The position numbers were made by a program, and so were the translations under genes. Below are positions 3,099-64,000 of a DNA stretch of 64,000 bases, one piece after another. The first letter of the stretch is position 1. Every line of letters begins with the position of its first letter. This DNA is from Amphiscolops sp. MND2022. Its lineage: Eukaryota. The stretch is taken from positions 9,054,001 to 9,118,000 of the forward strand of contig OZ076409.1 in NCBI GenBank assembly GCA_964187785.1. The letters are read 5' to 3'. The notes under the pieces were generated by a model. It searched no databases and was not told where the DNA came from. It saw only the letters and a program-made list of their open reading frames with translations.

Positions 3099-3298
3099 NN
3101 NNNNNNNNNNNNNNNNNNNNNNNNNNNNNNNNNNNNNNNNNNNNNNNNNNNNNNNNNNNNNNNNNNNNNNNNNNNNNNNNNNNNNNNNNNNNNNNNNNNN
3201 NNNNNNNNNNNNNNNNNNNNNNNNNNNNNNNNNNNNNNNNNNNNNNNNNNNNNNNNNNNNNNNNNNNNNNNNNNNNNNNNNNNNNNNNNNNNNNNNNN
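3099..3298. other. Assembly gap (200 N)
   Basis: Run of N bases. Confidence 1.
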
Positions 3299-7050: not shown

Positions 7051-7599
7051 TCCAATACAACCAACTAGTGTCAGTTCGACAGTACATCAGGTCGGACCCT
7101 CCAACTAAAACTTTCCATAATTATCAACAACAATTGATGGGCTATCCTTCTGTCGTCTGGCAGCAGCAGATGGAAAAAGCTACCATTACTACTTATAACA
7201 TCACCCATTTATACCACAAACCAATAACTGTTTGAGATCCTGACCATACAACAACCTTCACTACCCCATTAAGTCCCATTACCCTAATCGAAGATTACAA
7301 TCCAACGTACATTGACCCAGATTACCGCAGAGATCCTTACTGGGATACCGATATCTACCATCAAGATTTGTTACAATTCCAATAAGTCCTAGATGACATC
7401 GAACACTACCAAAGAACAGTCCACGAGAACCCTCCAAAAACGCACAACAAGAAAACCAGAGCATTTATTGACAATTGGCAACTGCACGATGGTACCAACC
7501 ATCCAGTGTTCCCACCCAAACCCCCTGAGAACCAAGAACCCCGAAATCACAACTGAAACAATTCCACATTACCTGTTGGGTGAGAAACAATTTCAAAAT

Positions 7600-16249: not shown

Positions 16250-17709
16250 TGATGATGGAAATGGAAAAAAAGATTAATCAGAAATTAGAAAGTTGGAGTT
16301 CGAGGCTGAAGAAGTTAACCAGACAAAAACTTTATGGTTATTTACATATTTATTACTGTGCATGGAGTCTGCCAGCGAAGTGTACAGACGACTCTTCAAT
16401 ACTTACAGCTTCGTTAGATGGAAGCCGATTTTGGACGTTCACTCAGTTTTGTTTTACTGTTTTGATCCGTTGCCCTTCTTATCTTTTAGTTAGCATTTCC
16501 GCCATTATGAATTGTTTAAAAATATTACTTTTCGCCATTTTATTAGTCATGTTAATTTTATCAATGAACAATTTTTATTTGCTGGAGCCATTTTGGAAGA
16601 AGTTACCCGACGCGTGTCGTTAATTACACCCTTGCGTGCTGCTATTCACCCACATGAATTGAAATTATTTGATGACAACAACTTGAAAGCCCTTCTCCCC
16701 TCCACTAAAGAAGGTGATGATGGGGGGAGAGAATTCGTAAATTCAAAGCTTGATTACCGCCGAGAACTTTCATTCAGGAATGTTTACGCCGAATTAGGGT
16801 AAATTACTGGAGATTCAACCGCCGAATAGGGACTACCGGGAAAAGGCCCAACTTGGCCTGAGTGAGAAAATTGATAAAATCATTCCTCTCACTTTGTCGA
16901 TGAAATCCAGTCGTCTCTAGCAAAGCAAAATTGCCAACAAATTCATAATGCAAAAGCTTAACTTGTCAAGAAAGCTCTTCGACTTTGAAGAGCAGAGTTC
17001 CGACGAATCAACAGACTCTGTGATATACATATCAAGCGATAGTGACTTGGATTTGGACTGGTTTCTGGATAGAAGTGCTGATCAGGAGGATCCAGCAAGA
17101 AGTAAATCTAGCCCAATGCCTATTGGGGGACGAGTCATGACCACGGAAGGACTTGACGAAGAAACGACAGCAGGTCCTAGCAGTTCGCAACCGATTCCGT
17201 CCACTACCGTCAAGTTCGGGCTTAACCATTTTGACAAGAAGATGTGCTCGCATCCTCTAGAAAGATGAAAAAAACCAAAATTGAGCTTTGCAAGACACTT
17301 CTGCTCGTTCTGGAATCCCCCATGTCACCCCTTGAGCACGAAAGGGGGCCTTCGCAGGACACCCCTCTGTTACAATCAACAGTTGCAAGCTTCCATGCAT
17401 CCTATCACGTTCAAAGTTCTCAACTGTACGCGGATCTTAGCAACCAGAGGTGTCTAAGTTGCATGATGTGCGGCAGGTCGGTCGACGAGATCAAGGAGCA
17501 GAAGATAAATGGGTATATGGAACAATCTACACCACGGGGTGAGCCCGCACACGTCACGGAAATCAGACGAGAAGCCTATTCGAACGGACTCAACGCATTT
17601 GCATTTTCTGGCTCCCGCTTTGTCACAAGCTGCCGCCTGTGACGGTACCCGAATAACAACAACGACTACTGGACAGGAATTAGTACCAGGTACTTTGCCC
17701 ACATATTGA
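16250..17709 (+). pseudogene. Sense accessory ORF(s) of unknown function in the Gypsy 3' region, ending inside the 3' LTR
   Basis: Chain of coding-like frames at 16293-16493, 16512-16802, 16948-17268, 17244-17642 and 17509-17709. Includes an acidic VIYISSDSD stretch and a CLSCMMCG Cys cluster. The final frame stops at 17709, 89 nt into the LTR. Confidence 0.5.
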
Positions 17710-19317
17710 AAACTAGAATCAAAACAAACTACTTTCCACCTGAACTATTGTATTCAGTATGTTATGTACACTATAATTGTTTTTATTATTAGTCTGGTAA
17801 TGCTAAAATTTGAAAATGCGAATCAAGATGCTTAATACGTTAAAATTTGCAAGGCTATAGAATAAAAAATTCAATTGAGAAAAGCGTGCAATTATACAGA
17901 TAAACGGAAACGATTTCAAGTGAACGGAATTTCCATTCCGGGGACGTCACTTGAGTTCGTTATATCAGCCAATCAGATCCTTCGATTTACTGTGCTGTGT
18001 ACATTTTCAAATCAATTGGCCGGACACTATGATGTGTTTACTGTTCGGGACAAAAAGCAAATATCTTGTTCAGACAGTTTCTCTATTTTTTGAAATGTTC
18101 TGGAGTTTTAAACTTTCTATGATATACCGTCATGTAGTGCCAAATTTATACTCAAGGATGCCTTAACAAGCCTCTTGAGCCTGATTGAAGTGACCGACAA
18201 TCATTAGTAGTAATATTTACTACCGATCCCTATACCTAGTCCGGCCACCCCTACTAATCAATTTCCTAGTCAAATGGCCGTACAGGGCTAAATATTGTGT
18301 TATTCCAGTTTTGCATGAAATCGTGCTGTTGATTTGGTATTAGATGAAATTTTTTGCACACGCAGGCACGTGCCGTAAAATACCTTGCATCCTTTGTCAG
18401 GAACAACACCTTGAAGTGTCAGCTCCGACGATCAATCAAACCCTATTTGTGAGGCCAAATTACTCTGCATCCCTTTGAAGAACCTATTTGAATTTGGTGA
18501 TATGTATTTAATCTGTTCAAACGCATTCCGTAATGTAAGTGGTTCCAAAATGATGCTGTTCAGTGTTTGGTATTTCACCTGATTTACTTAAGTATGTAAA
18601 AAATGTGAATGTCACTCTCTCAGGGGTACATATACTAACACTTCACCTGAGAGAGAAACAATTTGACTATTGCCACTATCATTCACACGCTTTGAAAAGA
18701 TACCATCCTGATTTATTAATAAAATATTACAATCGGGATTTTCTTAATGCCTACAACAAGGAAGCAAAAGAAAGCTAGAAAATCAAGAGATGCAGAAATT
18801 TTTCAGACATTAAAAATCTAGACATAATGCTAGGTGGGGATCACTTGGAGATAGAGGAAAGGGAAAATAACAATTTCGGCAGAAGCCCAGAAAGTCCTAG
18901 TTACGATACGTTGATGATTCAAAATGGTAATTCTCACTCTAATTCCCATGAAACTGAAATAGGTACTTATGCCCAAAACTGACATATTTCAGATAGAACA
19001 GATTCAGTCAAGAAACACATCAGGTGACCTTAATCAGAGGATCACTAGGGAGATGAGTGACTTCTTGAGTTCTCTTAGTTCTCAAATACAAAGAGCCATA
19101 AATGAGGCCATTAAAGACCAGATCTTGCCTGAAATCCAAGCATCCATTTGGGAGCCGGATAGGGCCAAATGCCCGAAAAAAGGTGGGGAAGCTCCGGTTA
19201 GGTGACTTGTGGTCAGGTCCGAAGAGTGCTTAAGCCGCAAACTTAGGAGCAGTTCTCGTGATGAGTGTCTAAGAGTCCCAAACAGGAACGAGGATAGTAG
19301 ATCAGACAGCCATGACA
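17621..19317 (+). repeat. 3' LTR (~1.70 kb)
   Basis: Runs tgtcacaagctgccgcctgtgacggtacccg...cagccatgaca. Visibly diverged from the 5' LTR by substitutions and small indels. Confidence 0.95.
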
Positions 19318-35770: not shown

Positions 35771-38700
35771 TCAACAAAATTCTGTAGTAATTCTGAAGTC
35801 AGGATTAGTATTAGGCCTCGGATTAGGTCGTAAATTGTATGTTCTCGTTTTTCTAGAATTATTACCGACAACAAAAGGCGGTAGTTCAGGTTTTTTGGGA
35901 AGGCTCTCCATAGTGGGTGGCGACAGGATGTAAGGATTGTCACTGACATCTAGATTGAACGACGTGTTACTAAGGGAGGATGTTTTATCCTTTTTCAGAA
36001 ATTTCATTTGCAGTTGTTCTAATTGCGTCATTTTCCGCTGTAACAACGTCTTCTGCTGTCATTAGGTGATTTCTGTAATTGTGGCTTCCTCGGGTAGGTT
36101 TTCTGTTGTTTTTCCGAACAGAACTTTTTCAAGTTCGGTTACCCAAGCTTGCGCGTACCAATCGTCATGGATTGTTTTAACCTCTGTGTCTGGAAGGTAA
36201 TCTTCCTCTTCGACTGTTACGTCAGGTACTGCTTGATTGGGCGCACATAGCCATAAGCGAATTCTATGGAGGGTTTGGGTGTGTCTTGTGTCCGTTCTTC
36301 TGACAGCGTAATTGTTGTTCGATAGTACCCTAACGACTATGTGGGACCGGTTCAAATGCAGTCTTTGAATGCAACTTTCATTGACTGATTATCTGCTTTC
36401 GGATTGAGGACGTAACAGTAGTCATTAACTTTGAGAGATGTGGCGGTCGCGTTTTTGTCGTTTTGTCTTTTGTACTTGAGGTAGGACTGCATCAAATTGT
36501 CTTTGGCGGATTGATGTATTTCAGCTATTTGTTTTTGTAATTCGTCCGCTAGGTCTCCGTTGGTAGCTTTCTTCCACTCTGGTTGGAGTCCAAACTTGAT
36601 GTCCAAGATATTATACGGGAAGCGTCAGTGGAGCACAGTGGTTGGTTCACATCCTAAGCTCTCATGATAGCTTGTGTTGTGGTTCATGACTGCTATCTGT
36701 ACATGTTTGTGTCACATCGACCGTCGTTCTCCCGTTGATATTTTCAATGAGGTTTTCGAAGATGCGTGTGTTTTTTCTAGGATGCAAATCGTTTGGTTGT
36801 CGCGTGGCTTATTCGTACGTCAAGTGTCTGTGCTATCTGGTTGACCACTTCTGATCTGACAGGTGATCTTTTATCGGTTAGTAACTGTTTAATGAATCAT
36901 CTTTGTTATTCCGGGATGTGTGTTTGTTTTTCCGTGGAGTGTTGATAACAGTTCTGGGACTATATGTTTCGGTATTATTATCTGGTGATGGGTGACAGTC
37001 CTATATTCTCCATAGTAGTTTCACATGAGTACACCATCTTTCATGATGATTCTTTCTTTCCTTAATTCCTAATAGAATTTTTCCTCGTGATTCAGTTTTA
37101 AGCAAGTGTTTGTCGTATTCTTCGTGGAGTATTAGTAATTTTAGCGCTTTGAGGAGGGGGTCTGCATCTTGTTCGTTCCTGATGTGCGCGTTTTCTTCAA
37201 TTGCTCCGAACGTATAGACTGCGGAGTTAAGTGGTATTTTGATCACTTCGGTTACTTTGGTTGAAAGTTCCTTTTCGTGTTCGTCTAGGGCACATTGTTT
37301 GCTAAGTACTTTTCTGGCAACAATTTCTTGCTTCTATTCTTCCTTTTCGTCTGGTACGAAGAAAAGTGCTTCTTCGTCTGCGACATCCGTCGATTGAAAA
37401 TTGACTTATATTGGCGACATTAGTACATCGTCTCGTATTTTCGGTTGAACTTTTTCTTTTGGGGTAAAATCGAGTACAAGAAATCTGCTGATTTTTGGTA
37501 GTCTGCTACGTGCATGATGTGAACTTGAATTGTAGGAGTAGTCGCAGGCATTCCACAGGGCGAGTGGTGTGGTCTTTGTTTGGAAGAATCTTCTGACCGA
37601 TCTGTCAGTACTAGGGACAGTACGAACGTATCCCATAGTATGTGACTATATTCCAGGAAAGCTTGGTATATAGCCAAAAACTTCCTGCAATATATTGACA
37701 TTTTCAGTAGGGCTGTGAGAACACGAGGGATCGAAACGCTACTGGTGGGAAAGCTTTTTTTGACAGGAGTTTCCGTTCATCGTTTTCCTATATCATGAGT
37801 GCATAACCTGATGCAAGGATGTTCGCTTCCGTCATGAGGACGATTTGTTGTCCAGCTTCGGGCTGTCGGAGGGCTAATCCACAGGCTTCCGCTAGGCTGG
37901 CGTTAATTTCTCTGAAGTTGTCGAATAGTTTTTTTGAGATGGTGATATTGGTATCAACTTTTAGAAGTTCATACATACCGATTAGTTTTTCTGACAGTCG
38001 CGGTATGTAGTTTCTGTAGTAGTCCACAAAGCCGATGTTTTTTGTACTTGTTTTTTTGATTTTGAGAATCGGAGTTGAATAGGAAAGTTTTGACTTTCTA
38101 TTTTTGCAGTGCCACTCCGTCGGGGGTGATGGTTCTGTCAAAGAATTCAATTTGGGGTACTCCAAAATGGCATTTTTTTATTGTCAGATTCAGACCGGCT
38201 GATACACTTGAAGACTGCTCTGATGTTTTTGATTAGTTGCTCCGTAATATTCGCGGCTATCCCAATGTCGTCGAGGAACTGTGCGTGCTGATCTGCTTTG
38301 ATGGCTGTGTCCAGATACTCACGCATGAAGCTCGAGAAGCCAGACAGAGCCCTGCTGCGTCATTGGGCCAGGCGACGGTAGGCAAACGTCCTACTAGCAA
38401 AACAAAAAGCAAGTAGTTCTACTGACCTTTGATCTGTCATCTGAAGGCAGTGATAGGCTTGCGAGCAGTCGAGCTTACGATTTAGCTTTATCCCAGCTAG
38501 GTGTTGTGCGGCATCTGAGAATGTGCTGATAGGATGGTTGTTGTTGATATAGTCATCTGCAATGAGTGCGTTGATTTTCCGCAGATCCACCAATAATCTC
38601 AGCCTGCCGTTTAGTTTCCGTTGTGCTAAGATGGGGCTGGTCTATTTGGGGAAAGGCAGCGTCGTGATGATTCCGTATTGGTGCATAATGTCCAGTTCTA

Positions 38701-41700
38701 CCGTCAGATCTTCTTTGAGAATGATCGGGACTGGTAGGCTCTGAGTGCAGACTTGCTTGTCATCTTTTGGTGTCGGCTGACTTTGAATTGCGTGTTCATG
38801 CCGATGTCTAGTCTATGTTGAGCGAAGATGTCATTGAATTGTGGCTTCTAAGCTTTCACGGTCCCTTCCCGTAATTAGTGAACCGGTCCATTTGAACGTT
38901 GAAAGGAACTGGGTTCGGGATTCTTCGCTTTCTGTTGGGTCACGTTTTTCGAGGTCGGCTAGCTCTCGTAGTTCTTTAAGGATTCGCTTTTGTATGGGCG
39001 AATGTTCATTCCCAGGGTTTTCCAGGTTTGGGAACTAAAATTTTTTTCATTGTCGTCAGGGCGTTCGACTTGTATTAGTGCGTTGATGTACGTGACAGCA
39101 TCGTCACGGTCTGTTAGCAGGTTCAGTGCTGCTATGTCTACCGAACGGATCAACTCCGTTTCCTCGGCCTTCAAGATTTGCAATTCGGCTTATTTAGTAT
39201 TTGGGGTTATTGTTTAAGGGAACTCCGTGGTTTTTCCTATTTTGATGGCTACTCTCTTGTCTCTGGCAGTTGATATCGTTGGGGCGACAATAAGTATCGC
39301 ATTCTCGTCAAACTGTGGTAGCGATTGTATTTTCCCAGTTATTGGGTGACCGTTACTCACAGGTATTGACGCGTCCATGACACGGGTGGATTGCGCAGAT
39401 AGAGTGTGTTTGCTCCCTGTTTTGATGGTGATCGGTTTTGGATTACATTTCTGCGTTTCCTCTGTGAGTGCCATCGTGATTCGTATTTTTGGGAAGCCGG
39501 ATATTCCTTGGGATGTCTAGTATGGTGGCGTGTTTCCACAGGAACGCCAATCCGATTATGGGAAACGACTTCTGGGTCATTATAAAAAAAGTTTCCTCAA
39601 ATGTGTAATCTCCAGTTTTGAATCGCATCGTGTACGTTGCGAGAGGTTGCTCTAATTCTGCGTTAGCGCATTGCACTTTGAAAAGGGGACGAGGCGCTTC
39701 ATTGATGATGCGCTGGGTTGCTTCATGCCTGATTATTTCTACATTTTTTCATTTATGGCATTTATTTACGCACCTGAGTCTACTAACACGTTTACTTTAA
39801 AGCTGCTGAAATCAATAGATAGGAAGAGCATTCGCTTCTTCTTTTTGAGGGCAATTGCGGACATAAACGGAATGTAGTCGTCATCTTTGTCGTGTTGGAT
39901 GAGTTCTTTGATGAGGTCGAGGTCTTGGGGTGATGGTGCTGGACAATCCGTTGTGCCTTCGTTGTTGGTGAGGAGTTGCGTAACAATTGCAGTTTGTGGT
40001 GGCGGAGCAGAAAAAATGTCTGCAATACGTTCCTTTTGCCTTGGTGACCAAAGTGTTTTGTCTTCAATGCATATGATGCCGTCTGCGTTTATCGTGGTGG
40101 TTTACAGCTTCGGGTATTAAAGGGATGGGTGGAGTTTTCTCGTCGGGTGAAGAGGTTTCGGCGGGTTTGGTACGTGTATGTTGAAAGAAAGGGTGTTGGT
40201 GTCGTAGATTTCTGGTTCATCCCAAGGAACACAACAGTAGTCCATGTCGTAGACGAAATTCGATCGGTTTTCGCTTTGGGCAGAGGATGTTTTAATGTGG
40301 CGTAGATATCTGGAGATTCCGTGATCCATTCATTCGGGAAGTGGTTTTGGGTTTTCTGGGTGTCTGATGTTGTTGCGGAGAATCATTCCGACTTTCAAAC
40401 TTGTTCGCCAATCCTGAGTGGGCTCTTCGTTGCACTCCGTCATGAAAGTTTTTTTTTCAAATCTATTTGGGGGGTGTTCTATGGTGTACGCCCTCGCGTC
40501 TACTTTTTCCCCGGGATCTAGGTGCGGCGATTTTTGATTTTTTTGCTGAGTTGCCGCGTTGGGTAGTGGGTGTTCGCTGATTTTATTGGATGAAATTGCG
40601 AACTTTCTTGTTTTCTTTCTGGGGTCGTTTGCCGCGTTTGCTCCGTACCTGCAGTTTTCGGTCTTGTACATTTTATTCGCAAGTTTCACATTTAGGTTTT
40701 TGGGTGTCTGCAGCATGTGTTTCGTTAGTTTTTGCCCTAATTCCGTAGTTTCTATTTGTCTTGAGTTTGCGGCATTGTGCTTCATAGTATACTTAGCGTC
40801 CGCAATGGAAACAATGCCCTCTTTGGTTTTGGTGCTGTTTTTGTTCCGAAGGGTTTACGTCGACGGCATTCAATGGAACTAACGTGGTTTCATCAGGAGC
40901 GCCCAGGCCGTTGAGACGGATGTCTCTTTCGAGCTGGAGGACCTTGTTGTTGTAGGGTTTGACTTCTAGTAGGCACGATTTAGTATTTTCTTGACATGGT
41001 TCGGCATTTTTGCATAAATTGCAGTATCTTTAAACTTTTCCGCCTCTGGACCGAACGCTTCTCGTGCACTTTTTTGTAGTGCATCCAAAATTTCATGAAA
41101 TTCTGTTCTGTTGGGCCAAAATGGAGGGCGTTCCATACACAGCGTGCCTTGGCTGAAGATTGAAAATCTCCAAAGCGACGTCGAAACACCGCCAGGATTT
41201 CTTCTAGGTTTTTTTGTGTCCTCAATATTATAAGACGCTTGTAGTGCATTTACTTTCAAGAGCGAGTAGAAATAACTGATTTGTTGTTTTTCCGTGGGGT
41301 GTGGGTACATTTTTATGTTGTTTCTAAAAAGGTCTTCGAAACGTTCGAGTGAGCGCTTTCGGCATTGGGAGTAAGTTAGGTGGCTGGAATGTTTGTGGAT
41401 GGGGCGCGAACAGTAATCATGATTAACTCATTAATGATCATTAATGTATATGGAACAGTCATGCATTCTGACTGTTATAAGAAATGTTGAGGATGCATTT
41501 TAGGATTTTAGGTGAATTCTACTTTCTTTCACAAATGAAAAAGAGCCATTTTTAAGATGCATGTTGAATCAACCTGGTGCGTCTGCATGTAAACCGTTTG
41601 AACCCTGGATTGAAAGTCACCCAGGATTGTTTTGTTATTATATTCCAAATGTTGTTACCATTTTTTCTTTCTACATTCGAGGAGTTATCGCCGCCACCAA

Positions 41701-43860: not shown

Positions 43861-44390
43861 TCATATTTCTAGACTGTCCAAAAAAGCCAGTCTTGATTTA
43901 AAATCCAGATCATGCAACCCCAGATCTTCCTCAACTGTAAGTGGGTCCCCTTTCCTCCGGGCTACTTCCTGGTACCCTGGTTCATCCAACACTTGCCTGG
44001 ATTTCTTGGTATTTGTATGATGAAGACCCCACAATCGGTGATCGATCAACCAGGTTCTTCTGAAACACTCATAGGCTTCATCCACCTTCTCGAAAATCTC
44101 CAGATCCACTCCCAAGTTGTGATAGATTCTGGACATGAGGCTGGAAAACTCTCCGTAAGTGCTGAGACACAGTTTCCGGGCTTCTAGAAGAAGACGCATC
44201 TGTTCTCTGCGGTTTTTGCTGGACATTGCATACAGAATGAGACCCTGGGTCATCAATGCTTCAGCTCGAAGACCAGAAGCTTCAGACCCCATTTCGTCAC
44301 AGAGCTCCAGCGCTTTCTTTATAGCGTCAATTCCTTCCTGACCTTTTTTCTTCCTCCACGACCTTAAACATGCAAGGAAGTCACACCGTT
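43861..44390 (-). CDS. Probable terminal exon with TPR-like repeats (kinesin-light-chain/TPR_12 style); 5' boundary unresolved
   Basis: Open frame ERCDFLAC..GIDAIKKALELCDEMG..SRIYHNLGVDLE...DEAYECFRRTWLIDHRLWGLHHTNT to a stop at 43861. Strong acceptor gtttttcag at 44391. Confidence 0.7.
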
Positions 44391-44603
44391 CTGAAAAACT
44401 TCATTTCAGTACCCTATGTGTCCTCTGAGCAATTTTGTACGCTGAAAATGAAGTACTGAGTAACTTGAAACTATCGAATTTTCTGGATTTGTAATACCAA
44501 GTCTTTCTTCATTATGACATAGCCCTACTAATTGCATTGCAAAACCTTATTGTTTTCAAGAACCATACCAATGTTTTTCACGAATCAGTTTCATCAAAGC
44601 CAA

Positions 44604-45005
44604 ACAAGACGGGAACGTTGGCTAAAGTTGGAGCTATATCTAAGGCTCAAAAAGTGCAAAGTTTTCAAAATTGTAAAACGGAGAACCCTTTGGGCTTTTT
44701 GGGCCAGTTTGTTGCAAAATATAAAAAAAAACTCCTGAGAGGCATCCCTTTGGAGAAAACAATTTCGAAAAAAGTTGCACAGTGCCGAACAATATCAAAA
44801 GGACCATATAGTCTCGTCCGGTTTTGTATCTTACGTTAAAAATGGAGTAAATGAAAGGGGGCCGGCCCTTTGCACTGACTTAGATTCGTTTCCGGTTGCC
44901 TAGTAAAACGTGTCCACTACGCATACATTCTGTAGTCTAACCAAAAAAAGTATTCACTGTAATCGTCGGGCTTTCTTTCTTAAAAGAAAAGTCGCCGAAT
45001 AAAAT
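44604..45005 (-). repeat. HINE-like repeat in the intron of the TIR-RING-SAM-TPR gene
   Basis: aacaagacgggaacg..gctatatctaaggctcaaaa through to the cgtcgggc..gtcgccga hairpin. Confidence 0.65.
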
Positions 45006-45023
45006 GAGCATAACTCAACTAAC

Positions 45024-46227
45024 GTGTCGTTTTCGCACATGCTCTGAACAGCAAAGCATTTGATGATGTATAGTTTACATAGCTTTGGTTTCTCCAGATA
45101 CTTTGACCCGTTTTTGATGATTTCGTCACAGATTCCGGACAAATGGTTCCAACTAGCTGCATTTGCTTTGTTGATGAACATCACTTGCTTCAACTTGCGC
45201 TGAACAATGTAAGCTAGCATAACTTTTGTGTTGTAAGACCTAGCGTTGTCTTTCTCGAAACTTAGCGAAGCTATTGCAAAAGTTTCTGCGTCAGCAAAAT
45301 TGCCGGCATCACAAAGCACCATGGAAATCTTGCTGAGTTGCCTCGCTTTTATGTCGAAACTTTGTTTCGTATCATTTTGAAGAGTATCTCCCAACTTTTT
45401 GATAAGTTTTGTGACATCATTCAAACGGGTCTCATTGAGAGACGCCCAAAATTTGATAGAATCGGCAGGTGTGGTGCCGGTTGTCAAACTTCGTTCATCG
45501 TAGATGTCCTCTATCATTTGAAACTCGCCAACACTTGCTTCGGGTGTACTTATAGGTGCAGCTGAAACAGCGTCTTGTTGTTTTTTATGATCAGAGATGC
45601 TTTTGAGAACCCGTTTCCGGTGCCCGGTTTTCAAACCCATGCCTTTCAGATCCTCGTCGGTTAGCTCCAAAACCAGATCCAATGATTCGAAGCCTTCTTC
45701 AATTACTGCATCTTGGATGTCTTGAGGAATGTTGTACTTCTGAAACCAGTCCATCAACTCCTGGCTCGTTTTTTCGCTTTGACCTTGGTCCATGGGTGAG
45801 GAACCACTGGTACTTTGGGCAGACCCAGATGAACCCTGATCAGAGCTTCTACTTTTGGAAGCTTTTTCATTCAACTCCACCAATTGATTTATCTTGAAAT
45901 CGGTTTTCAAGTCCGAAGCTGATTCGGCACAAGGTATTCGGCATTTTGGACACGTGAACTCTTGCTGATTTCGATTGTTCTCTTTTTCCCAATCGATCAG
46001 GCAGTGCAGACAAAATGTGTGGTTACATGGCATAAGTCGAGGCTCCTTGAAGATTTCTTGACAGATTTCACATGTGGTGAAAGACCGTAAATTCGCAAGA
46101 GTGCTCAAATTATCTTGGCCTTTTTCCGCAACATCCAGTTTTTCGTTTGTCTTCTCTTCAGTTATGGATAGATATGATAATCTTGATAAAACTTTCTTAC
46201 ACGTATCTTCAAGTTCTTCTTTCGTGC
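45024..46227 (-). CDS. Internal exon: C3HC4 RING finger, SAM domain and helical/TPR-like region
   Basis: RING CEIC..PCNHTFCLHC..CPKC (~45940-46072). SAM LELTDEDLKGMGLKTGHRKRVLKSI (~45595-45670). Acceptor ttctattcttttcag (phase 1) at 46228 and donor GTTAGT at 45023. The 1.2-kb frame is intact amid decayed TEs. Confidence 0.88.
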
Positions 46228-46292
46228 CTGAAAAGAATAGAAATTGTTGCGGCGCAAGACAAGTAAGATGAACTTAAAGTAACAAATAATTA

Positions 46293-46363
46293 GACGATAT
46301 GGCAGAATGGTAAAAGAGTAGACTTTGAAGCCATTGATCGTAGGTTCGATTCCCGGGACCGGC
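46293..46363 (+). repeat. tRNA-Gln(TTG)-like pseudogene or SINE head
   Basis: A box TGGCAGAATGG (46300), ctTTGaa loop and B box GGTTCGATTCC (46343). The acceptor stem is poorly paired and T-runs lie downstream. Confidence 0.5.
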
Positions 46364-46494
46364 AAGTATTTGGGAAAAATTTTTGTTTTTTTCAAAATAT
46401 CTCTGATTTTTGCAAAAATAACCTTGAGAAAATGCGTAAAAAGGTCATGCTAGCTTTTGTTTGTCAGTGTTTATTGCTGTTTGAGGCTCTTTTA

Positions 46495-46857
46495 TGTTCC
46501 CCCCCCCCCCCACCACCAAAATTTTGGCAGTAAATTTTCTTAAAAACTTTAGACTAGCTTAATTAGAAGTAAAACCTTCTTTCCTAATGGGAAGTTAACG
46601 TCTATTGTTCACGCTTTTCGACTATAATTATGTTCGTATTAAGTGTTTATTGATGACTCAAAACAGGAAGCTGTTGATTTCTTCATCCAAAATGCGTGAC
46701 TACATATTGAAAAAGTGTGAAAAAAGTTTGTATCTGAATCCTAAACTGTCACACTAAAAATAAATGTAAATTTGAAGCTTTCTGGATTGTATTCAAGTCT
46801 TTTTGTTATACTGTTTTCACTTATTTTCCAGGAAAATTTTGGTGGTGGGGGGGAACA
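46495..46857. mobile_element. MITE with C-rich TIRs
   Basis: tgttcC(n)accaccaaaattt / aaattttggtggtG(n)aaca. Homologous copy at 58388-58853. Confidence 0.65.
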
Positions 46858-47713
46858 GAAAAATCCCTGTTTGATAATATTAGAATAATTATTGTTCATT
46901 TGTCTGCGAAATGCAAAAATTCTACAGTTATTCATACCCATTTTGCCTCGATTTGTCACTGTTTATGGCCGTATTTGAAAGCTGAAAGATATTATTCAAC
47001 TCCTTCTTTTCAAACGAAGTCTATAGAAACATTTGGCTTTTATAGAAATTATGCAATTATTGTAGTTAACTAGTGCCCAATCGTTATTGTTTTCAAAGTT
47101 TTGTTTTCTGAAGCCCTCCCTTGTTGAAACTGCTTGAACTTTTTGCATGTACTTTAATGTTGCCAGCAACTTTTATTATGATTTTCTAAAACTCTTACGG
47201 AAACTTTCATGCGAAAATTTGTCCCTGTTGTATTTAACTTTTATCAAGCTGCTTGAAAGATTCATCAAAATTTTGGCGGCAAGTTTAAGCCTTGATGTTT
47301 TGCAGGTTTCATTAAGCAGCAGTAATAATTTTGAAAGAAATAAGGCGCTATCAATTTTACCGCTAAATTAATGCAAAATAACTTCAGTCGCATAATAAAC
47401 TGCAAGTTAGCGTCATGTCTAGCGTGCTATTTGAGAAGCGGTGATCACATCAGATGAGTAGTTGAGAAAACAAAGTGTGAATACAAAGTGATCGTGTCGG
47501 TAATCTAGTGTAATTTATTTTCAAATTTAATTACAACAGTGGAAAATGCAGTGTAATTGTACATGATTTACCAAACGAAATTCACTGAATTTTCTAGGTT
47601 TTATAAAAAATTACCCTGCATGCATGCCTGCAGCATGTAAAAAGTTCCTAGGCGATAGCCAATACAAAGCCTAGAGATAAAAATTGAACCGCGGAGTTCA
47701 CGGAGAAGAAGGT

Positions 47714-48459
47714 TGTCGTGTTTCTCGCAGATCAAAACGCTTTTCTATAAAAGCTATTATTCACAAGGCTGCAAATATCAAAGCACATATCAAAGGGACA
47801 TCGACATCTAAAATAAAACATATGTCAATTACAGCAATATATGATAAAGGCATAAATCAGTATACACCACATCCCCCTTCCAAGAGTTCTCATCAATTGT
47901 CCCATCGGAGAGCGTGTAGTTTTTTGTGCTGGAACTCACGATGCGTCTTTTCCTGCGAGGTAAGTTGTTCGGAAGGGCAATAATACAGCATGGCTCACTA
48001 AGGAAGACTCAAAAGGGTCCGAGAGAACAATCCTAGCGAGTACTAGCCACATTGCTCCCTTTGCCTGTCCAACTACCGTTGCCTCTGATCTAGTGACGGC
48101 TAGATCAACTACAGATGGTACTACGACCACGGGAGTGGCGGAACAAACTTCGACATGCGTTACTAGTAGAGACTCGTCTTTGGTTGTAAAGTCTTCTACT
48201 ACTCCCGAGGTCCCGATTAGGAGGTCTGCACGAGTCAGGAAACCGAACCCAAGACTCAACGACTTCGTTTGCAAGTAACTATAAGAACTGTTGGAAGGGA
48301 ATGATGTGTGTACTGATTTATGCCTTTATTATTATTTACTGCATTTGACATATGTTCTATTTTAGATGTCGATGTCCCTTTGATATGTGCTTTGATATTT
48401 GCCGTCTTGTGGATAATAGCTTTCATAGAAAAGCGTTTTCATCTGCGAGAAACACGACA
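47714..48459. mobile_element. 746-bp element with ~180-bp inverted LTR-like arms and an integrase-like C-terminal tail
   Basis: TGTCGTG...CACGACA termini with perfect TSD aaggt (47709-47713 and 48460-48464). Arms at 47714-47893 and ~48281-48459. Internal PIRRSARVRKPNPRLNDFVCK*. Confidence 0.85.
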
Positions 48460-48809
48460 AAGGTGAATGCTGATGTTGTATCTACAGAACTAACGCTTAC
48501 GAATATAAAAGGCCAGATTGAATAAAGGATTCAATTTGTATCCTTTTTCAAAAAGCCGAGTTATTGACTAAAGCCTGAACGCTGGTTAAGTAACAACGCA
48601 ATTCTTGCAAGAATCTTGCAAAATCTGTGCATTTATTACATTCTTCGAAAGATCTTACAACTGAATTTATTCCTTGCAAGAATCCTAAAAAGAAATGTAA
48701 TCTTTGTAGGATATCTCAAGGAAACGTCTTACAGATAAACCAATCTTCAGTCTAACTGGCATAAAAGGAAAGTTCAAAAGAGTGTTCCCAAAGCACAGTT
48801 GAGTTAAAC

Positions 48810-49301
48810 GAATCTAGGAAAACTCGTTGGAAACAACTCGTCGAAAACAACTCGCCGAAAACAACTGGTCGAAAATACTAAGCGGAAAACTCGTCGAAAA
48901 GCAACTCGCCGAAAATTCTCCGGTGGAAAACTCGTCGCAAGAATAGAAAATAATCTCATGCAAATATAGTGCTAACTTTGTGATCATACCGTGTCATGAA
49001 GTTCTAAATTATTATGAAGTACTGAACTGTAAACCATAAAAATGAAACATTTCAAACAATTATTTAACTATAAAAGCTGTACTATGCGTAAAACTGAAAA
49101 TTTCACGCATCAATTAACGAAAATTTGTCTCTAATTAGTACTGGATAAGCCGTTTGGGTAATATGTAACTATTCGACGAGTTCTCACCTAATTATCACTC
49201 GACGAGTTAATTTTCGACCAGTTTTCCGCCTTTTAATTTCGACGAGTTGTTTTCGACGAGTTGCATTCAGCGAGTTGTTTTCAACGAGTTTTCCGCATAC
49301 C
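48810..49301. mobile_element. Mutator-like MITE
   Basis: Perfect 9-bp TSD gagttaaac (48801-48809 and 49302-49310). G-initiated TIRs with tandem aactcgtcgaaaa subrepeats. Confidence 0.8.
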
Positions 49302-49994
49302 GAGTTAAACATTCTTAAGTCTTTTGAGTTAGCCAAAAGAACCATAACTGAATCTCACCTTTGTTAAAATTGTCTGAGCTTTGTGCATGCCTTTTAATGT
49401 TGGCGGCAACCATTGTTAAGACTTTCGAAAAATTTTCGGAAACTTCAATGCGAAACTTTTCCCTGTTGTATTCGACTTTTATCAAGCTGCTTGAAAGATT
49501 GCTCAAAGTTTTGGCGGCAATTTCAAGCCCTTAGTGTTGGTAATGAAGTGGAATTCATTTTCAAATTTAATTTGCAGCAATGTAAAATGCAGTGTAATTT
49601 TATAAGATTTACCAATAGAATTTTACTGAATTTTACACTTCGTCGCAACTTGTAGTTGTGTGGTCTGTCATATTTATGCGTGTATTTTCACTGTTATTAG
49701 CTGTATTTACTAGCTCGAGAGCTAGTTTTAGCAATTTTAGACGTTACTTCAAAGCGTCGAAAATTATCTTTCGATCAAATTGTCTATTTCACAGTGCCTA
49801 AAAACCAAGGCGAACCTTTTCGGATGAGGGCGCAATATTTTCGAACAACCGCCTACTCATTAGTAATACACAATTTACTTCGGATACAACATCAAAAGTT
49901 AGCAATTGGCGTGCTGGGCGCTAAATCGGAGCGCTTTATTTCGATTCTCCGCTGCCCCCGTGGTAAAACGCAGTTTACTTCGAATAAAATATCA

Positions 49995-51610
49995 ACAAGC
50001 CGGGACCGGCCCAAGTCGGTGCCATATCCAAGACTCAAAAATAGCAGAAGGACATCAAAGTTTCAAAGTATTCTCTTCTACAGCACTAAAAAAATATATT
50101 TTGAAAAAGTCTCAAAACGCCGAAAAAAATTGAAAGGGGGACCCTTTGGGATTTTTCTATACCCAGTCTGTCGCAAAACCCAAAAATAAATTGAAGGGGG
50201 GACCCTTTGGGGATTTTTTTTCAGAAAAAAGTCTCGCAATGCCGAAAATAACTGAAAGGGGTGACCCTTTGGTCTCGTCCGTCATTGTATGTTATGCGGG
50301 AAACTTTTTGGTTCTATTCCCTGGGCCAACAGGTGAAATTTGAAATTTTGTAGAACTTTTGGTAGAACTATTTTGGTCAGTTCAGGTGGTCATGAAAAAC
50401 AAGACGAGAACGTCTAAAGTCGGCTCCATATCTAAGGCTCAAAAAGCGCAAAACAATTTTTCGGAAAAAAACTTGAAATTTTTGAAAAAAAATTTTCTTT
50501 CGAAAAAAGTCGCATAGTGCCGAAAAATGTAAAAGGGGGACCCTTCTGGATTTATTAACATACATTCCGTTGCAAAATATCAAAAACCTCGAAGGGGGGA
50601 CCCTTTGGGGACATTGAAAAATTTTCGAAAAAAAGTCGCACAGTGCCGAAAAAAATCCAAAGGGGGACCCTTTAGGCACGTCCGGTTTTGTGGGTTTCCT
50701 TGAAAAAGTAAATAAAAAGTAAAAAACCAAAGGGGGACCCTTTGGAATAACTTAGATGCGTTTCCGGGGTATTCGTTTAGTTGAAGATACTGAACGTTAA
50801 CGTTCGTCGCTTCGAGTCTGTCTCAAATAAAAAAAACGAGTGACTGTAATAGTCGGGCTCTTTTCTTAAGAAAAGCGCCGACTAAGAACACTGACGAAAA
50901 ATCATGACTATAGTCGACTCTTTTCTCTAGAAAAGCGCCGACTAAAAAATTCGAGTATAGAGCAATATAGTTTGGATATGACGACATACAAAGTCAGATA
51001 TAACGCAATATGTTGTTCATATCAAAAAAGACAATCAATATAGTTTAGTTCGCTAGGCCAAAAGGAACGTTTCAAGATTTTGTACAACTTTCGAAGAAAT
51101 ATTTTGGTCAGTTCGTGTGGATTGAAAAAAAACGTCCAAAAGCCACTGTAATAGTTGCGCTTTCAGTCGGGAAGAAGAAAAAGCGCCCAACTATTACAGT
51201 GGCTTGTTTTTTTTCTTTTTTTTTCGCCAGACCACAGACCTCATTATGTATGTACCACTTTTTGTGCACTGTGCACTTTTACCAGAAGTACTTAGAGTAC
51301 TTGATTTTGAACGCATCCAAAGCCTCTAACGTGAAATACAAAACCATTGCAAAGCAGAAAGGTACCCCTTTTCAATTTTTCGTCACTATTAGACTTTCCC
51401 CAAAAAAGTTGTGAGACTTTTTTTCGAAAATTTTTCAGTGTCTTCAAAGGCCCCCTTTCAATTTTTTGATATTTTGCAACAAACTGGAATTTCAAAAAAT
51501 CCAACGGATCTCCATTTTAGTATTTTAAAAACTTTGCGCTTTTTGAGCTTGAGATATAGCGGCGACTTTAGACGTCCCCGCCTTGTTATTCCTTAAAAGC
51601 GCCGACTAAA
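49995..51610. repeat. Cluster of tandem/nested HINE-like copies in both orientations
   Basis: aacaag..agtcgg..atatctaaggctc starts at ~49995 and ~50398, with an inverted copy ending ~51588. Many gggggaccctt repeats and agtcg..cgact hairpins at 50850-50945. Confidence 0.65.
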
Positions 51611-51639
51611 AAGTGTTTGGTGATTTGGGTGGAACTAAC

Positions 51640-52024
51640 CAGACGTAACAGACAAGCACTGGAAAATGGAAGTGAATAAATAAGCTCGTGCTCCTTCTTT
51701 GGTGTTGTGTTTTATCCACTCGAAGCTTCCGAACACAATGGGCAGCATTTCTGGCTTAGCCCTCTGAGTATAACACCTGAAGGCACAGTTAAACTCAGCC
51801 ACACATTCCATACTGTTTGTCCACGCCTCGTCTAACAAGATTATCATAACTTTGCAGTTGATGGCGTTCAGAAGGATCTCATCCCGGAAAGCAGCGCCTG
51901 GACTCATTTCCAGACAGATGAACGTGCTAACTCCGGCTTCTTCCAGGAAATCGTGCAAGAGCTTGGCTGTGTCTTTCGTAGTCCGACAACAGTGGCTGAT
52001 GAAAACGTCACAAGGTGACGTCAT
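51640..52024 (-). CDS. First coding exon: TIR domain (TIR_2/SARM1-like)
   Basis: DVFISHC box 1, LHDFLEEAGVSTF, EILLNAINCKVMIILLDEAWTNSMECVAEF (conserved Glu codon at 51794-51796) and MLPIVF. ATG context caaaATG. Phase-1 donor G|GTTAGT at 51639. Confidence 0.88.
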
Positions 52025-52049
52025 TTTGGGTCACGTGACGATTCAGGCC

Positions 52050-52980
52050 GAATCTAGGAAAACTCGTCGAATAGGGAAAAGGAGGTCTAGCTGCTTCTAA
52101 TTTATTTGCTTCTAATCGAAATCTCTTTTTACTTCTAATTAAATTTCTTCAGCTGCTATGTAGTTGCTTCTAATTTATCTACATGTAAGCTAGCTGCTTC
52201 TAAAAATGAATACAGCACAAGCGACGAAATAATTACGATAATGTAATCAGCTATGCTCACATACCCCTAGTGCCCTAAATGCAGGAGCGAAGCGAAGCGG
52301 AGCGACGTGCCATATGGCCATGTCTCAATGTTGCTGCTTGGCGAAGGGAGCGAAGCGACCGAGCCATACAACAAATATGCTAACCTCTTCAAATTGTAAC
52401 CTGAAAATAATCGCTGTTATGGAATTCCTTCGACGCTTTGAATAGCTTTAATTTTTTCGACGTTTTGAATATTCTACGGTTTGAATAGTCACCGTTAGAA
52501 TCGTCTAAATTTGGAAGCTAGTAGTTTTAGGAGCAACTAGTTTTAGAAGCAGCTAGATTTAGATGTAACTCGTCATTTCAAAATTAGAAGCAACTGGGCA
52601 GACCCGTCGAAAAGCAACTCGCCAAAAATTGGCTGGCGGAAACTTGTCGCAACAACAGAAAATAATCTCAGACAAATATACCGGTTTGTGATCGTGCTGT
52701 TATTAAGTTCCAACTTATTATGAAGCATTACACTGTAAACTAAAAAAAGTGAAATATTTCAAGCAAATATATAACTGAAAAGCTATATTATGCGTAAAAC
52801 TGAAAATTTCACGCATCAATTAAGGAAAATTAATAAATAATTAGCACTGGATAATCCCTGTTTGTAATCTTAAAATTATTCGACGAGTTTGCAGTCAATT
52901 TTTATTCGACGAGTTAATTTTCGACCAGTTTTCCGCCTTTCAATTTCGACGAGTTGTTTTCGACGAGTTTTCCGCATACT
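52050..52980. mobile_element. Second Mutator-like MITE copy with a nested MITE (~52082-52605)
   Basis: Same termini as 48810-49301, with TSD attcaggcc/attcaagtc (7/9). The inner element has ggtctagctgcttctaattt / aaattagaagcaactgggcagacc ends. Confidence 0.75.
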
Positions 52981-53110
52981 ATTCAAGTCACGTGGTTTTG
53001 AGAAGACGTGGTTTTCTTCCAGGTCACGTGATTTTTAATTGTGGTCACGCCGTTTCCTGCTCATATGACGAAAAGCACCTGCCGTCTGTCAACAAATAAA
53101 GGTAAGTTGG
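52981..53110. promoter_or_regulatory. Candidate bidirectional promoter with clustered GTCACGTG E-boxes
   Basis: gtcacgtg at ~52987 and ~53023, gtcacgcc at ~53044, plus gtcacgtgac at 52030 on the other side of the MITE. Consensus plus-strand donor AG|GTAAGT at ~53101. Confidence 0.45.
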
Positions 53111-58387: not shown

Positions 58388-58853
58388 GTAGTCATAAACT
58401 GTAGTACCCCCCCCCCCCCACCACCACCACCACACCAAAATTTTTGAAAGTAAATTTCCTTAAAAGTTTCACACTGGACTAATTAAAAAGTAAAACTTTT
58501 TTTCAAAACAGGAAGTTAACGTCTCTTAGAATAGTTTTTTTTTGTTTGAACAAAATTTTTTCACGCATTTTGACTATAAATATGTGTTTGTATAAATTGT
58601 TTTTTGTTACTCAAAACAGGAAGTTGTGAGTTTGTTTATCAAGAATGCGTGACTTCATAGACAAAAAAAGTGTGAACAAAGTATGTATTTCAATTACAAA
58701 CTGTCACACTGGAAATAAATATAAAATTGAAGGTTTCTGGCTTGTATTCAAGTCTTTTTGTAACAATATTTTCACTAATTTCCCGAAAAAATTTTGGCGA
58801 TGGGGGGGGGGAAGCAGAAAAGAACCGCCACAATCTTCAGTTTTTATGACTAC
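58388..58853. mobile_element. MITE, same family as 46495-46857
   Basis: gtagtcataaactg / cagtttttatgactac inverted ends. The interior is colinear with the 46.5-kb copy. Confidence 0.65.
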
Positions 58854-60175: not shown

Positions 60176-61179
60176 AAATTGTCATATTCTACCGCTAGTA
60201 ATGACATCGGAAAAAGGTTGAGCATATGTACACGAAGGATTTTGTTTATCAGAATACTTCCTCTAAACTATTTCCGGTTGAAAAATTACACTTGTCTAAA
60301 TTGATGGATTAAAATGATGGATTAGAAAAACCATCCCATCTCCGCTTAGAAGTGGAAATTGAGATGTAGAATACATTAGAAAGAACAAGACAGCAACAGA
60401 ACTCAGACTGTTAATTAGTCACTTTTCTATGTGGCCAATCTTCTCATTGTTGTCGAATCACCATCACTGGTCCTGTCAGACAGGAAATCACAGGGTCATG
60501 ACAATTCATGTAGGGTTCCTTCTGGATGTTACCATCATTCGTGTGGTTGTTGACTTCAGTTCCACCGTTCTGTTGTAGGTAACTATTGACTGGCAGAAAT
60601 AGGAATTGATTTCAGACCATCGAGCATCCTTTTCAAAGTTTCTGATAAAGCTCTAGTTGTTCGTTTCACTCTTCCTTTCCAGAGCTTAACTAAGAAAAGC
60701 TAGTGGACCAGGTCATCTATTTACCACCCCCCTAGGTACGCCTTGTTGGGAATATCCCTCAACACGAAAGCATTTTGTTCTTGAATAAAACTATTTCACT
60801 AATAAGAGAATATTATATGAATGTAAATACTGAGAGGATTGTTTGGACACTTCAGGCAAAAAAACTTACCATAATTTTTTGATATTATTGTCCAAAATAG
60901 CAGAAATTTACGTTTGTAACAACCTAAAATTGTATATAAAGGCCCTGTAGAGGACACACAAACTCACTTAAACTAATTAGTCTGCTTGTACTATTTATAC
61001 TTACTAATTTAAAGTACCTGCCCGCCACATAAGTGCGGATGAACTGAATACATTCAGTGATAGAAAAAGAAGAGACAAGAATCAGTTGAATTTTAGTAAA
61101 CAATATCTTTCTCTTTACAAGTCAGCTATAGATACAACATGGCGCAGTCAGAGTAACCTTCACAAGTTACTGAAGATTA

Positions 61180-62538
61180 ATGGACGACAGCACAAATACC
61201 TCTCCAAGGAATGGAGGATTCAACGGGACGGTGACGGAAACGCACCAACGCGAAGAACCGCCACCAAACGATACAATGAACAGAACCACAGAACGGACTT
61301 GCACACAGAACCTCACCATTCCAACATTGGACAAGCAAGACTATACCAGTGCAAACATGTGGTGGCGGAAATTCGTACAGTACATAAAAATGACGAAAGA
61401 CTTAGATCTATCAACAATGACAAACAGCAAAGAGATACTGCCACAATACCGTGATCAACTGGAAACAGAGATAAAGGACATATTTCTGTGGGCAATCGGA
61501 CAAAACGCTATCACGGAAATGACCAAAACGGTTAGAGAAAGAGAACCAAGCTCATTGCCGTTACACAAACTGTACTCATTATTTCGGTTACATTTCACTC
61601 CAGAACGGAATGTCCACCACAGTAGAGCCGATTTTTTCGAATTGAAACGAGAAGAAGGAGAGTCAGCGGCAGATGTCTGGAAACGGATACTGGCAATCGA
61701 AAAAAATTGCGAATTTGAAACAATAACCGCGGCAGAACTACTAGCATCAAAGTTCATCTCGGTAATCGGCAAATCAACAGGCGACTACGACCTCAAGAAA
61801 AAAATCAGAAAAAGTGACATGTCAGTAGAAGCAATAACCGAAGCACTACATGAACATATGTACGAAAAATTAAACGACTCACCAGAAACAGAAGAGGAGA
61901 AGAAAATTAGATACCTCAACAAAAGGAAAGCAAAAAGCTATAAAGAACACACGGATAAACCAAGCAAATTCAAAAAAATGGACTGCAATAGATGCGGAGC
62001 TCCGAACTGGTCGAGACATCACGAATGCCCAGCCAGAGGAAAGAAATGTACAAAATGCGACAAGATCGGCCATTACGCAAAATATTGCAGAACAAATAAA
62101 AAGATAAACCGCATACAAGAACACGGAACCAGTAGTGCGGAAGAAGACGACTGGTCACCGAAAACAATCCTTTGCATTAATCAAAAGATCCATTCAACGC
62201 GTCAATTGAATACAGACGGTTCAGATTTCTTTACACTCACCGCATTGGTCAACAACCGACCAATCAAATTCATAATAGACAGCGGATCACCGGTAACTCT
62301 AATACCGAAATCACTATTTAATAGAATAACACCGTTGAAACCGCTGAAAACGGAATACCGAGACGTAAACGACAACAGAATTAAATTTGAAGGAAAAACA
62401 ACTGCAACAGTAGAAATAAACGAAAAGCGAAATGATCTGGAAATCCTGATAACTACGAAGGAAACCAACCGTTTGTTAGGCTTGGACTGGATGAAAAAAC
62501 TGGGAATAACGCTGGAGACCGGTAGAACCGATCCATAA
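61180..62538 (+). CDS. gag: Gag plus aspartic protease (452 aa)
   Basis: Zinc knuckles CNRCGAPNWSRHHEC and CTKCDKIGHYAKYC, protease FIIDSGS and LLGLDW. The stop at 62536 is in frame with the downstream pol. Confidence 0.88.
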   Translation: MDDSTNTSPRNGGFNGTVTETHQREEPPPNDTMNRTTERTCTQNLTIPTLDKQDYTSANMWWRKFVQYIKMTKDLDLSTMTNSKEILPQYRDQLETEIKDIFLWAIGQNAITEMTKTVREREPSSLPLHKLYSLFRLHFTPERNVHHSRADFFELKREEGESAADVWKRILAIEKNCEFETITAAELLASKFISVIGKSTGDYDLKKKIRKSDMSVEAITEALHEHMYEKLNDSPETEEEKKIRYLNKRKAKSYKEHTDKPSKFKKMDCNRCGAPNWSRHHECPARGKKCTKCDKIGHYAKYCRTNKKINRIQEHGTSSAEEDDWSPKTILCINQKIHSTRQLNTDGSDFFTLTALVNNRPIKFIIDSGSPVTLIPKSLFNRITPLKPLKTEYRDVNDNRIKFEGKTTATVEINEKRNDLEILITTKETNRLLGLDWMKKLGITLETGRTDP

Positions 62539-64000
62539 ATAAACCGTATCGTCGAAGATCCGGATATTACCACTCTCAAAAGGAAATTCAAGAAACTCTT
62601 TCATGAAAACCATACGGTGAAAGGACTAGAAGTGGAAATACAATTAAAAGAAGACGCAAGGCTAATACAACAAAAAGGAAGGCCAATACCGATTCACTTA
62701 CAACAATCGGTCGAAAAAGAAATTACCAAACTAATGAAACAAGGCCCCATCGAAAAAGCAAACAACATAGACGAAAACTGTTTCGTCAGCCCGGCAGTAA
62801 TAACCGTAAAGAAAGACAAATCGGTAAAAATCGCCCTAGACTCGAGAAAATTGAACGAGATCACGATCAAAAGAAAAACACAAATGCCCAACATGGAGGA
62901 ATTAATTTCCAGGATCTCCAGAAAAATTGCGGACGGACCGGCAGACGAAATCTGGACTTCGAAACTCGACCTAGACTACGCATACGGTCAATTATCATTG
63001 TCCAGAGAAGCCCGGAACCTGTGCATAATTGCCGTAACTGGTGGAAACTTTACCGGTTACTACCGTTTCCTGAAAGGGTTTTACGGGTTAGCGGACATAC
63101 CGACAATATTCCAAGAAAAAATCGACCAGACTTTAGAAAACAAACACCCAGCATGGCTAGACGATATAATAGTCGTAACCAAAGGTTCAAAAGAACAACA
63201 CAAAAAGGAACTAATAGATGTTCTAACCCGGCTAGAAAACGCTGGATACAAACTCAGCGAAAACAAATCCGAATTTTTCAAAACGGAGATTGAATGGTTT
63301 GGCCATAAAATTAACCAGAATGGAATCAGACCATTGCAAGACATATTAATGGCAATAAAAGAATTGAAAAGATCCAACAACGAAAAAGAACTCAAATCTT
63401 TTTTCGGAGCCATTCAATATTTATCCAAATATATCCACAATTTATCAGCACAAACAGATATCTTGAGACAATTACTGAAGAAAGATTATGAATGGATATG
63501 GACTGAAGAACATACACAAGCATTTGAGAATCTCAAACAAAAGATCACGGAAATACCGTGTTTGGCTCATTATAATTCATACTACCCAAACGTGATAACA
63601 ACCAATGCCAGTACAAAAGGCCTCGGTGCGACTCTATGGCAAGAACAACCCGACGGAAAACTGAAACCAATCGGCTTCGCAAGCCGATTCTTATCCGACA
63701 CCGAAAAAAAATACGCCATTAATGAACTCGAATTACTGGCCGTCGTTTGGGGGTTAGAACATTTTTGACTGTACATCTACGGTAAACCAATCAAGTTACT
63801 TACGGATCACCATGCATTAGAACCGCTCATTAAACGCAACTGGTCCAATAAAACATACAGCGCGCGGTTGACAAGGTGGTGGCTGGACGGATTAGCACAC
63901 TTTACGATCAACGTAAACCATATCGCAGGCAAACATTTAGCACTCACGGATTACTTGAGTAAAAATCCGACAGCGGATACGTCATCAACAAGATCCTACC
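62539..64000 (+). pseudogene. pol: pol: RT and RNase H
   Basis: SKLDLDYAYGQ, GFYGL, WLDDII. RNase H TNAS (catalytic D to N) and YAINELELLAVVWGLEHF, then a premature TGA at 63766. Confidence 0.88.

Follow-up and report, generated by a model that had tools for sequence, protein, structure and literature searches.

Introduction

In the standard cycle of LTR retrotransposons, the minus-strand cDNA extends from U5 via U3 and the polypurine tract (PPT) into the integrase gene. Several described systems come close to the locus reported here, each in a different respect. Ginger1, Ginger2 and Tdd (Bao et al. 2010; PMC2836005) and GingerRoot (PMC6839031) are described with TGTNR termini, terminal inverted repeats and an integrase-related interior, and Bao et al. 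speculated that the terminal inverted repeats of Ginger1 came from two opposed LTRs (PMC2836005). An inverted double insertion of two copies of Rover has also been described (PMC5932611), and DIRS-1 is a retroelement with inverted terminal repeats.

Here we analyse a unit that lies in a 64-kb stretch of DNA from Amphiscolops sp. MND2022 (64,000 nucleotides of contig OZ076409.1, the whole of which is called the window). With the K02A2.6-like Ty3/Gypsy elements it has in common an integrase tail, a PPT, a short TG...CA LTR and a 5-bp duplication, whereas its LTRs are inverted, each of its termini is a 3' end, a primer-binding site (PBS) was not found, gag, protease and reverse transcriptase (RT) are lacking and the whole measures 746 bp. 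Like the intermediate proposed by Bao et al., it consists of two opposed LTRs around an integrase region, one of them the original 3' LTR and the other probably from another element, but it keeps only the last 128 integrase codons, has no catalytic core and bears no evidence of a second move (PMC2836005). It also departs from the nested insertion sketched in the same work in that its left flank is not element DNA, at least at the present site (PMC2836005).

The termini, the length of the inverted ends and the integrase-related interior are shared with the Ginger groups and GingerRoot as these are described (PMC2836005, PMC6839031), but the duplications differ. Ginger1 duplicates 4 bp, CCGG or CCGT/ACGG, against the 5-bp AAGGT found here (PMC2836005). 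Ginger2 and Tdd duplicate 4 bp within RTATAY, and 5 bp in the case of TDD-4/5 (PMC2836005). The duplication of the unit has the length of that in TDD-4/5 but equally of that in the Gypsy relatives, and its target is not RTATAY. Taking the described Ginger groups and GingerRoot together, its 5 bp stand against duplications of 4 and 6 bp (PMC2836005, PMC6839031), and, unlike the terminal inverted repeats described for them, its inverted ends contain PPTs. Furthermore, the partner of a Ginger element is a stand-alone integrase-like transposase, whereas the parent family of this unit has protease and RNase H. In the Rover pair, too, a single site holds two LTR elements that are inverted relative to each other, but the unit retains the outer ends only, and the target word does not recur in its centre (PMC5932611). 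DIRS-1 uses a tyrosine recombinase, in contrast to the DDE integrase (rve, Integrase_H2C2) of the family of the unit. In the literature that we searched, which was covered in part, we found no description of a Gypsy unit whose two PPT-LTR ends share a single duplication, and this is weak evidence that such a unit is unreported.

Results

Structure of the unit and its target site

The sequence-only reading had described 47709-48464 as a pair of inverted LTR ends, each with its PPT, inside a perfect 5-bp target-site duplication (TSD), and arm alignment together with flank comparison confirmed this arrangement (Table 1). The unit itself (47714-48459, 746 bp) starts with TG and ends with CA. The arms, estimated before at about 155 bp, proved to be longer: they occupy 47714-47893 and 48281-48459 and align over 180 columns, 160 of them identical (89%, 20 differences), and it is only their LTR-like part, of 158 bp, that comes near the earlier figure. 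Each arm continues inward for a further 21-22 nt, in which the purine tract lies; over the 22 columns just inside the LTR the arms agree at 18. The plus strand was found as it had been described, with an integrase-like tail ending at a stop (48276-48278), a purine tract and then the LTR; the frame of this tail also has an internal stop (47961-47963). Integrase homology runs through the whole 387-bp middle, beginning where the left arm ends on its inner side (~47892).

Table 1. Features of the inverted-arm unit and of the intron around it (positions in the window)
Feature	Position	Strand	Basis
Left TSD copy, AAGGT	47709..47713	.	flank comparison
Left LTR-like end of 158 bp in inverted orientation, with the U5-type end outward; nearer subfamily Y	47714..47871	-	arm alignment; read-through peptides, 4 relatives
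Left polypurine tract, 10 purines	47872..47881	-	
Junction zone, inverted 3' untranslated end meets integrase coding; crossover uncertain within about 47889-47894	47882..47893	.	
Gypsy integrase gene 3' end, last 128 codons and stop; in-frame stop 47961-47963; groups with subfamily X	47892..48278	+	
Right polypurine tract, 9 purines	48293..48301	+	
Right LTR-like end, 158 bp; normal position behind integrase stop and PPT	48302..48459	+	
Right TSD copy, AAGGT	48460..48464	.	flank comparison
Putative host intron, about 5.4 kb, TIR exon to RING-SAM exon; TPR exon follows	46228..51639	-	Pfam, splice sites

The flanks of the unit are equal at exactly 5 bp and unequal at 4, 6 and 7 bp. Two random 5-mers drawn from the local flanks would be equal with a probability of 0.0026, and AAGGT does not occur among 1,939 local 5-mers. 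Beyond the TSD the inverted repeat is not continued (7 of 30 flanking positions identical), and an inverted duplication of the right end together with its flank was rejected on this comparison. No adjacent pair of the two flanks, which would represent an empty site, was found when the window was searched with each flank; a repeat copy at 49348-49634 stops short of the site. A second copy of the unit is also absent from the 64-kb window.

The low chance of a 5-mer match likewise counts against an ordinary element whose 5' LTR was inverted in place and whose flanks agree over 5 bp by coincidence. This inversion was rejected on the position of the PPT, which lies inside the left LTR. An inverted 5' LTR would have a primer-binding site next to it, not a PPT. 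That the unit is such an inversion or, as the other form of this reading, the remnant of an ordinary Ginger-type DNA transposon (discussed with the parent family below) we regard as very improbable.

No PBS was detected beside a U5 end, both U5-type ends abutting host DNA. Three PBS-type motifs of 7-8 nt are absent from both strands of the unit, and two 5-nt motifs have one match each, away from the U5 ends. The arms are inverted, so that the unit lacks the two direct LTRs of a TRIM-type element. It contains no gag, protease or RT, and the catalytic core of the integrase is also missing. Judged by the standard LTR cycle, the unit should be unable to copy itself again, because it has no recognisable PBS, no 5' LTR, promoters that, if any, point outward, a broken frame and no catalytic core.

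The parent family

The 104-residue integrase tail alone had no Pfam match. A first protein search with it gave 14 proteins from 306 candidates, 77-89% identical to it, and a second search, in which the frame was used with its internal stop read as X, gave 18 proteins from 28 candidates, 15 of them new; the family thus comprises 29 proteins over both searches. Among the first 14, Pfam recognised rve in eight, Integrase_H2C2 in five and an aspartyl protease in one (P0005), and this protease shares 41% identity with the one in the full-length relative P0023. In P0005 the protease region is fused straight to the 3' half of the integrase, an internal loss of RT and RNase H. Another family protein, P0008, starts at the equivalent of residue 814 of P0018, within the RNase H domain of the latter (714-816), and its best full-length relatives (36-46% identity) contain RT, RNase H and integrase, most of them with protease as well. 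Among the frameshifted fragments found for the family itself no RT was seen; the copies are old and degraded.

The PPT stands directly before the TG...CA LTR and behind the integrase stop, and four relatives read into the same sequence. According to these comparisons the parent of the unit is a Gypsy LTR retrotransposon and not a Ginger element, because the family has a protease and an RNase H tail and its nearest full-length relatives are protease-RT-RNase H-integrase polyproteins. Presumably this K02A2.6-like kind of Ty3/Gypsy, which has a single ORF, is the one called 'Mag-like'. Full-length copies of the family would be expected to carry the arm sequence as a direct LTR pair. The suggestion that both ends are PPT-LTR 3' ends of a Gypsy retrotransposon therefore stands, with a 5-bp duplication that fits a single integrase event, and the partner, for which an ordinary Ginger transposase had been the other candidate, appears to have RT-type domains, as its protease, its RNase H tail and its RT-bearing nearest full-length relatives indicate. 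These same protein domains weigh against the Ginger remnant mentioned above, for which it can be said that Ginger1 and Ginger2 have TGTNR ends and terminal inverted repeats of 40-270 bp and that the duplications of TDD-4/5 are of 5 bp (PMC2836005).

The left flank of the unit has no match to the family proteins, and a nested insertion at the present site was rejected accordingly. No relative of P0008 was found among viral contigs, and a 21-nt pattern from the arms had no match in viral contigs or in JGI metagenome contigs. DNA of the element was found in none of 98 fetched loci and in none of 10 genomes behind some of these loci; as no source among these is known to contain the family, this result is uninformative.

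LTR pairs of more distant Gypsy relatives

As a control we used these 98 loci, which belong to relatives with 26-44% identity (79 from the best 80 of 346, plus 19 more) and are not independent, many coming from one assembly. In 38 of the 98, direct repeats enclose the integrase and both flanks are available; the TSD of the pair was 5 bp in 20, 6 bp in one and not found in 17. Under our criteria no pair was recovered from the remaining 60, many of which were too short. An inverted LTR pair was seen in none of the 98. One inverted candidate, in L071 (arm 7623-7945), was rejected as lying outside the LTR of that locus (about 7355-7604). The LTRs of L081 and L083 end in the same 8 bases as those of the unit. 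Since two of the control loci share terminal bases with the arms and 5 bp is the commonest TSD length among the pairs, the arms look like ordinary LTRs of Gypsy relatives on this sequence comparison, and 5 bp is the duplication to be expected. The 19 added loci (L080-L098) come from prokaryote genome bins; they code for relatives of Gypsy integrases, accompanied in several cases by an LTR pair and a 5-bp duplication, and are probably misbinned eukaryotic contigs.

One template or two

Two main types, called here X and Y, can be told apart among the family proteins, in a grouping made with 24 of the 29 (the other five lacked an anchor motif or had too little sequence behind it). Seven of seven hand-picked diagnostic residues of five of the 24 proteins, those of type X, are present in the middle of the unit, which groups with these proteins (FastTree support 0.877). 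The four frameshifted proteins that continue into the LTR are all outside the X group, with P0010 partly intermediate. Their read-through peptides match the left and the right arm with 92 versus 89%, 93 versus 79% and 89 versus 73% identity, the fourth matching the left arm only; they were anchored on the left arm, and this anchoring can favour it. No X-type peptide running into an LTR was found among the family proteins.

The differences between the arms are also unevenly placed, with 14 in the inner 65 columns and six in the outer 115; only three of 200 permutations clustered as strongly. Of the 14 differing inner columns 12 are informative, 10 favouring the left arm and two the right (binomial p 0.039), although the same split counted as events becomes 7 versus 2 (p 0.18). 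As the middle groups with X, the left arm matches the Y type and the differences cluster inward, the arms probably derive from two templates (we put this at about two in three). The assignment of arms to subfamilies was made with four short peptides, and the right arm could be merely a more mutated copy instead of an X LTR.

These data bear on the origin that the sequence-only reading had put forward, a fold-back or copy-back derivative of a retroelement. In its single-molecule form, a nascent minus strand would snap back near its own PPT, copy its own LTR, become double-stranded and integrate, and the arms, identical at first, would have decayed to 89%. The copies seen in this family, 77-89% identical over the tail, are old and degraded, so that a decay of 11% is possible, and 109 of the 115 outer columns are identical. 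Nevertheless, neutral decay predicts an even spread and an even split, against which stand the clustering in the inner 65 columns and the 10-to-2 skew; moreover, a hairpin would have a single DNA end, and the second end would need an extra priming step. We therefore hold a single-template fold-back to be rather unlikely. The single-molecule version of a copy-back origin is weakened by arms that look like two templates, on evidence that is suggestive (p 0.015 to 0.18, depending on the test).

The junction

At the junction, the inverted stretch on the inner side of the left PPT is similar to the last four codons before the junction in the family, with six of eight fixed positions in the left arm and seven of eight in the version of the right arm. 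Over 127,976 window positions, such likeness occurs 455 times at 6/8 and 47 times at 7/8, so that the chance of it in any of seven registers is about 2.5% for the left arm and 0.3% for the right. It would be compatible with annealing or end-joining through such a short inverted similarity, which we take as a hint only, since the look-alike was noticed post hoc and is shifted by 3 nt from the register of the actual crossover; that the right arm gives the better likeness would also speak for the single-template fold-back.

None of the 29 family proteins bears the junction, a count with little power, as a junction copy would have no start codon before 48093. This touches the reading that the unit belongs to a family that is non-autonomous but mobile. 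Two opposed Gypsy 3' LTR ends of sister subfamilies would serve such a family as terminal inverted repeats, and an integrase acting in trans would re-insert its members after their excision or copying as DNA, an LTR-to-terminal-inverted-repeat step. The shape fits, with a TGTNR start, inverted ends of 180 bp and a clean duplication, and such an origin is what Bao et al. proposed for the inverted ends of Ginger1 (PMC2836005). Against it, the window has a single copy, all 29 family proteins retain integrase sequence upstream of the junction (a test of low power), and integrases are described as normally only integrating, the mechanism of excision being unknown (PMC2836005). Mobilisation in trans finds no support so far, the frame being broken and no PBS motif having been found among those tried. 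We consider a mobile family quite improbable.

Host intron and surroundings

TIR, RING, SAM and TPR domain exons (Pfam) follow in a row on the minus strand at 43864-52030; if they form one gene, it would have an unusual immune-type domain order. The TIR exon is followed by a GT donor (51639) and the RING-SAM exon preceded by an AG acceptor (46228), which are phase-compatible and in frame, and the unit accordingly appears to sit in an intron of a TIR-RING-SAM gene. As RNA, the unit has a predicted fold of -364.7 kcal/mol (z -23.5 versus 20 shuffles), with a longest perfect run of 45 bp. The long hairpin that had been proposed for an intron of the TIR gene is thus upheld by the predicted fold, together with an intron called from splice sites, and transcription of the gene, if it takes place, could make it a source of double-stranded RNA. 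Juxtaposed inverted LTR copies are cited as a route to plant hairpin RNAs (bioRxiv 10.1101/2024.07.25.605110).

Other repeats were noted in the window. A MITE-like element with inverted ends made of 14-nt repeats is present at 48801-49310 and in a second copy at 52602-52983; the first copy lies in the same putative intron as the unit and is flanked by a 9-bp direct repeat (48801-48809, 49302-49310). A short element has two copies, 73% identical, at 46499-46862 (with 21-bp perfect inverted ends) and 58416-58821, and another repeat has two old copies, ~80% identical, at 47108-47593 and 49348-49634, the unit lying ~120 bp beyond the first. At 61174-64000, and cut by the window end, lies another Gypsy element; it has protease, RT and RNase H domains and is ~25% identical to relatives of the family studied here. 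Further features are an RT-like remnant at 38207-38755 (minus strand), a 1.7-kb direct repeat pair, 87% identical, at 4162-5890 and 17621-19317, and an assembly gap of 200 N at 3099-3298.

Discussion

The reading that we favour, and to which we give about half of our confidence, is that DNA of two related templates was joined head to head in the course of a single Gypsy retrotransposition event, and that the unit is its one-off and dead product. Two co-packaged RNAs of sister subfamilies would each have been reverse transcribed starting at the U5 end. By one route, two unfinished minus strands would anneal by their 3' ends and prime each other, and the outcome would be a short duplex that carries a U5 end on each side; by another, two cDNAs would each give one U5 end to a single integrase complex, their inner parts being trimmed and joined later. 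In either case the integrase would insert both U5 ends in concert, leaving a single 5-bp duplication.

A different order of events would also account for two templates and for the equal outer 5-mers, namely that one 5-bp site received two full elements on separate occasions, in head-to-head orientation, and that the long palindrome between them was then lost asymmetrically, so that nothing but the outer ends remained. Inverted tandems of LTR retrotransposons with a target-like junction motif have been reported in Drosophila (PMC5932611). However, most of the LTR tandems described there arise by LTR-LTR recombination, and the inverted tandem lies at a palindromic motif, whereas AAGGT is not palindromic (PMC5932611). 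In addition, the same five bases would have to be struck twice, and flanking pentamers differ among related elements. We find such a double insertion with later collapse unlikely, although its end product, once the deletion has taken place, would be identical to that of both routes of the single event.

The unit is most likely, then, a rare, dead copying accident. Standard LTR finders seek direct repeats, and a unit of this kind would be classed as a MITE. As a one-off, it would be a readable fossil suggesting that a germ-line Gypsy integrase took two U5 ends, probably from different cDNAs, and produced the normal 5-bp duplication. It would also show how a 180-bp hairpin of retrotransposon origin can arise in one step within a host transcript. 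Its shape is the raw form that has been proposed as the start of the Ginger1 DNA transposons, and, if the unit did belong to a mobile family, it would represent the transition from LTRs to terminal inverted repeats caught in the act, as Bao et al. proposed for Ginger1 (PMC2836005). If the U5-U5 architecture recurs, a genome-wide count would give its frequency and tell whether any such unit moves again.
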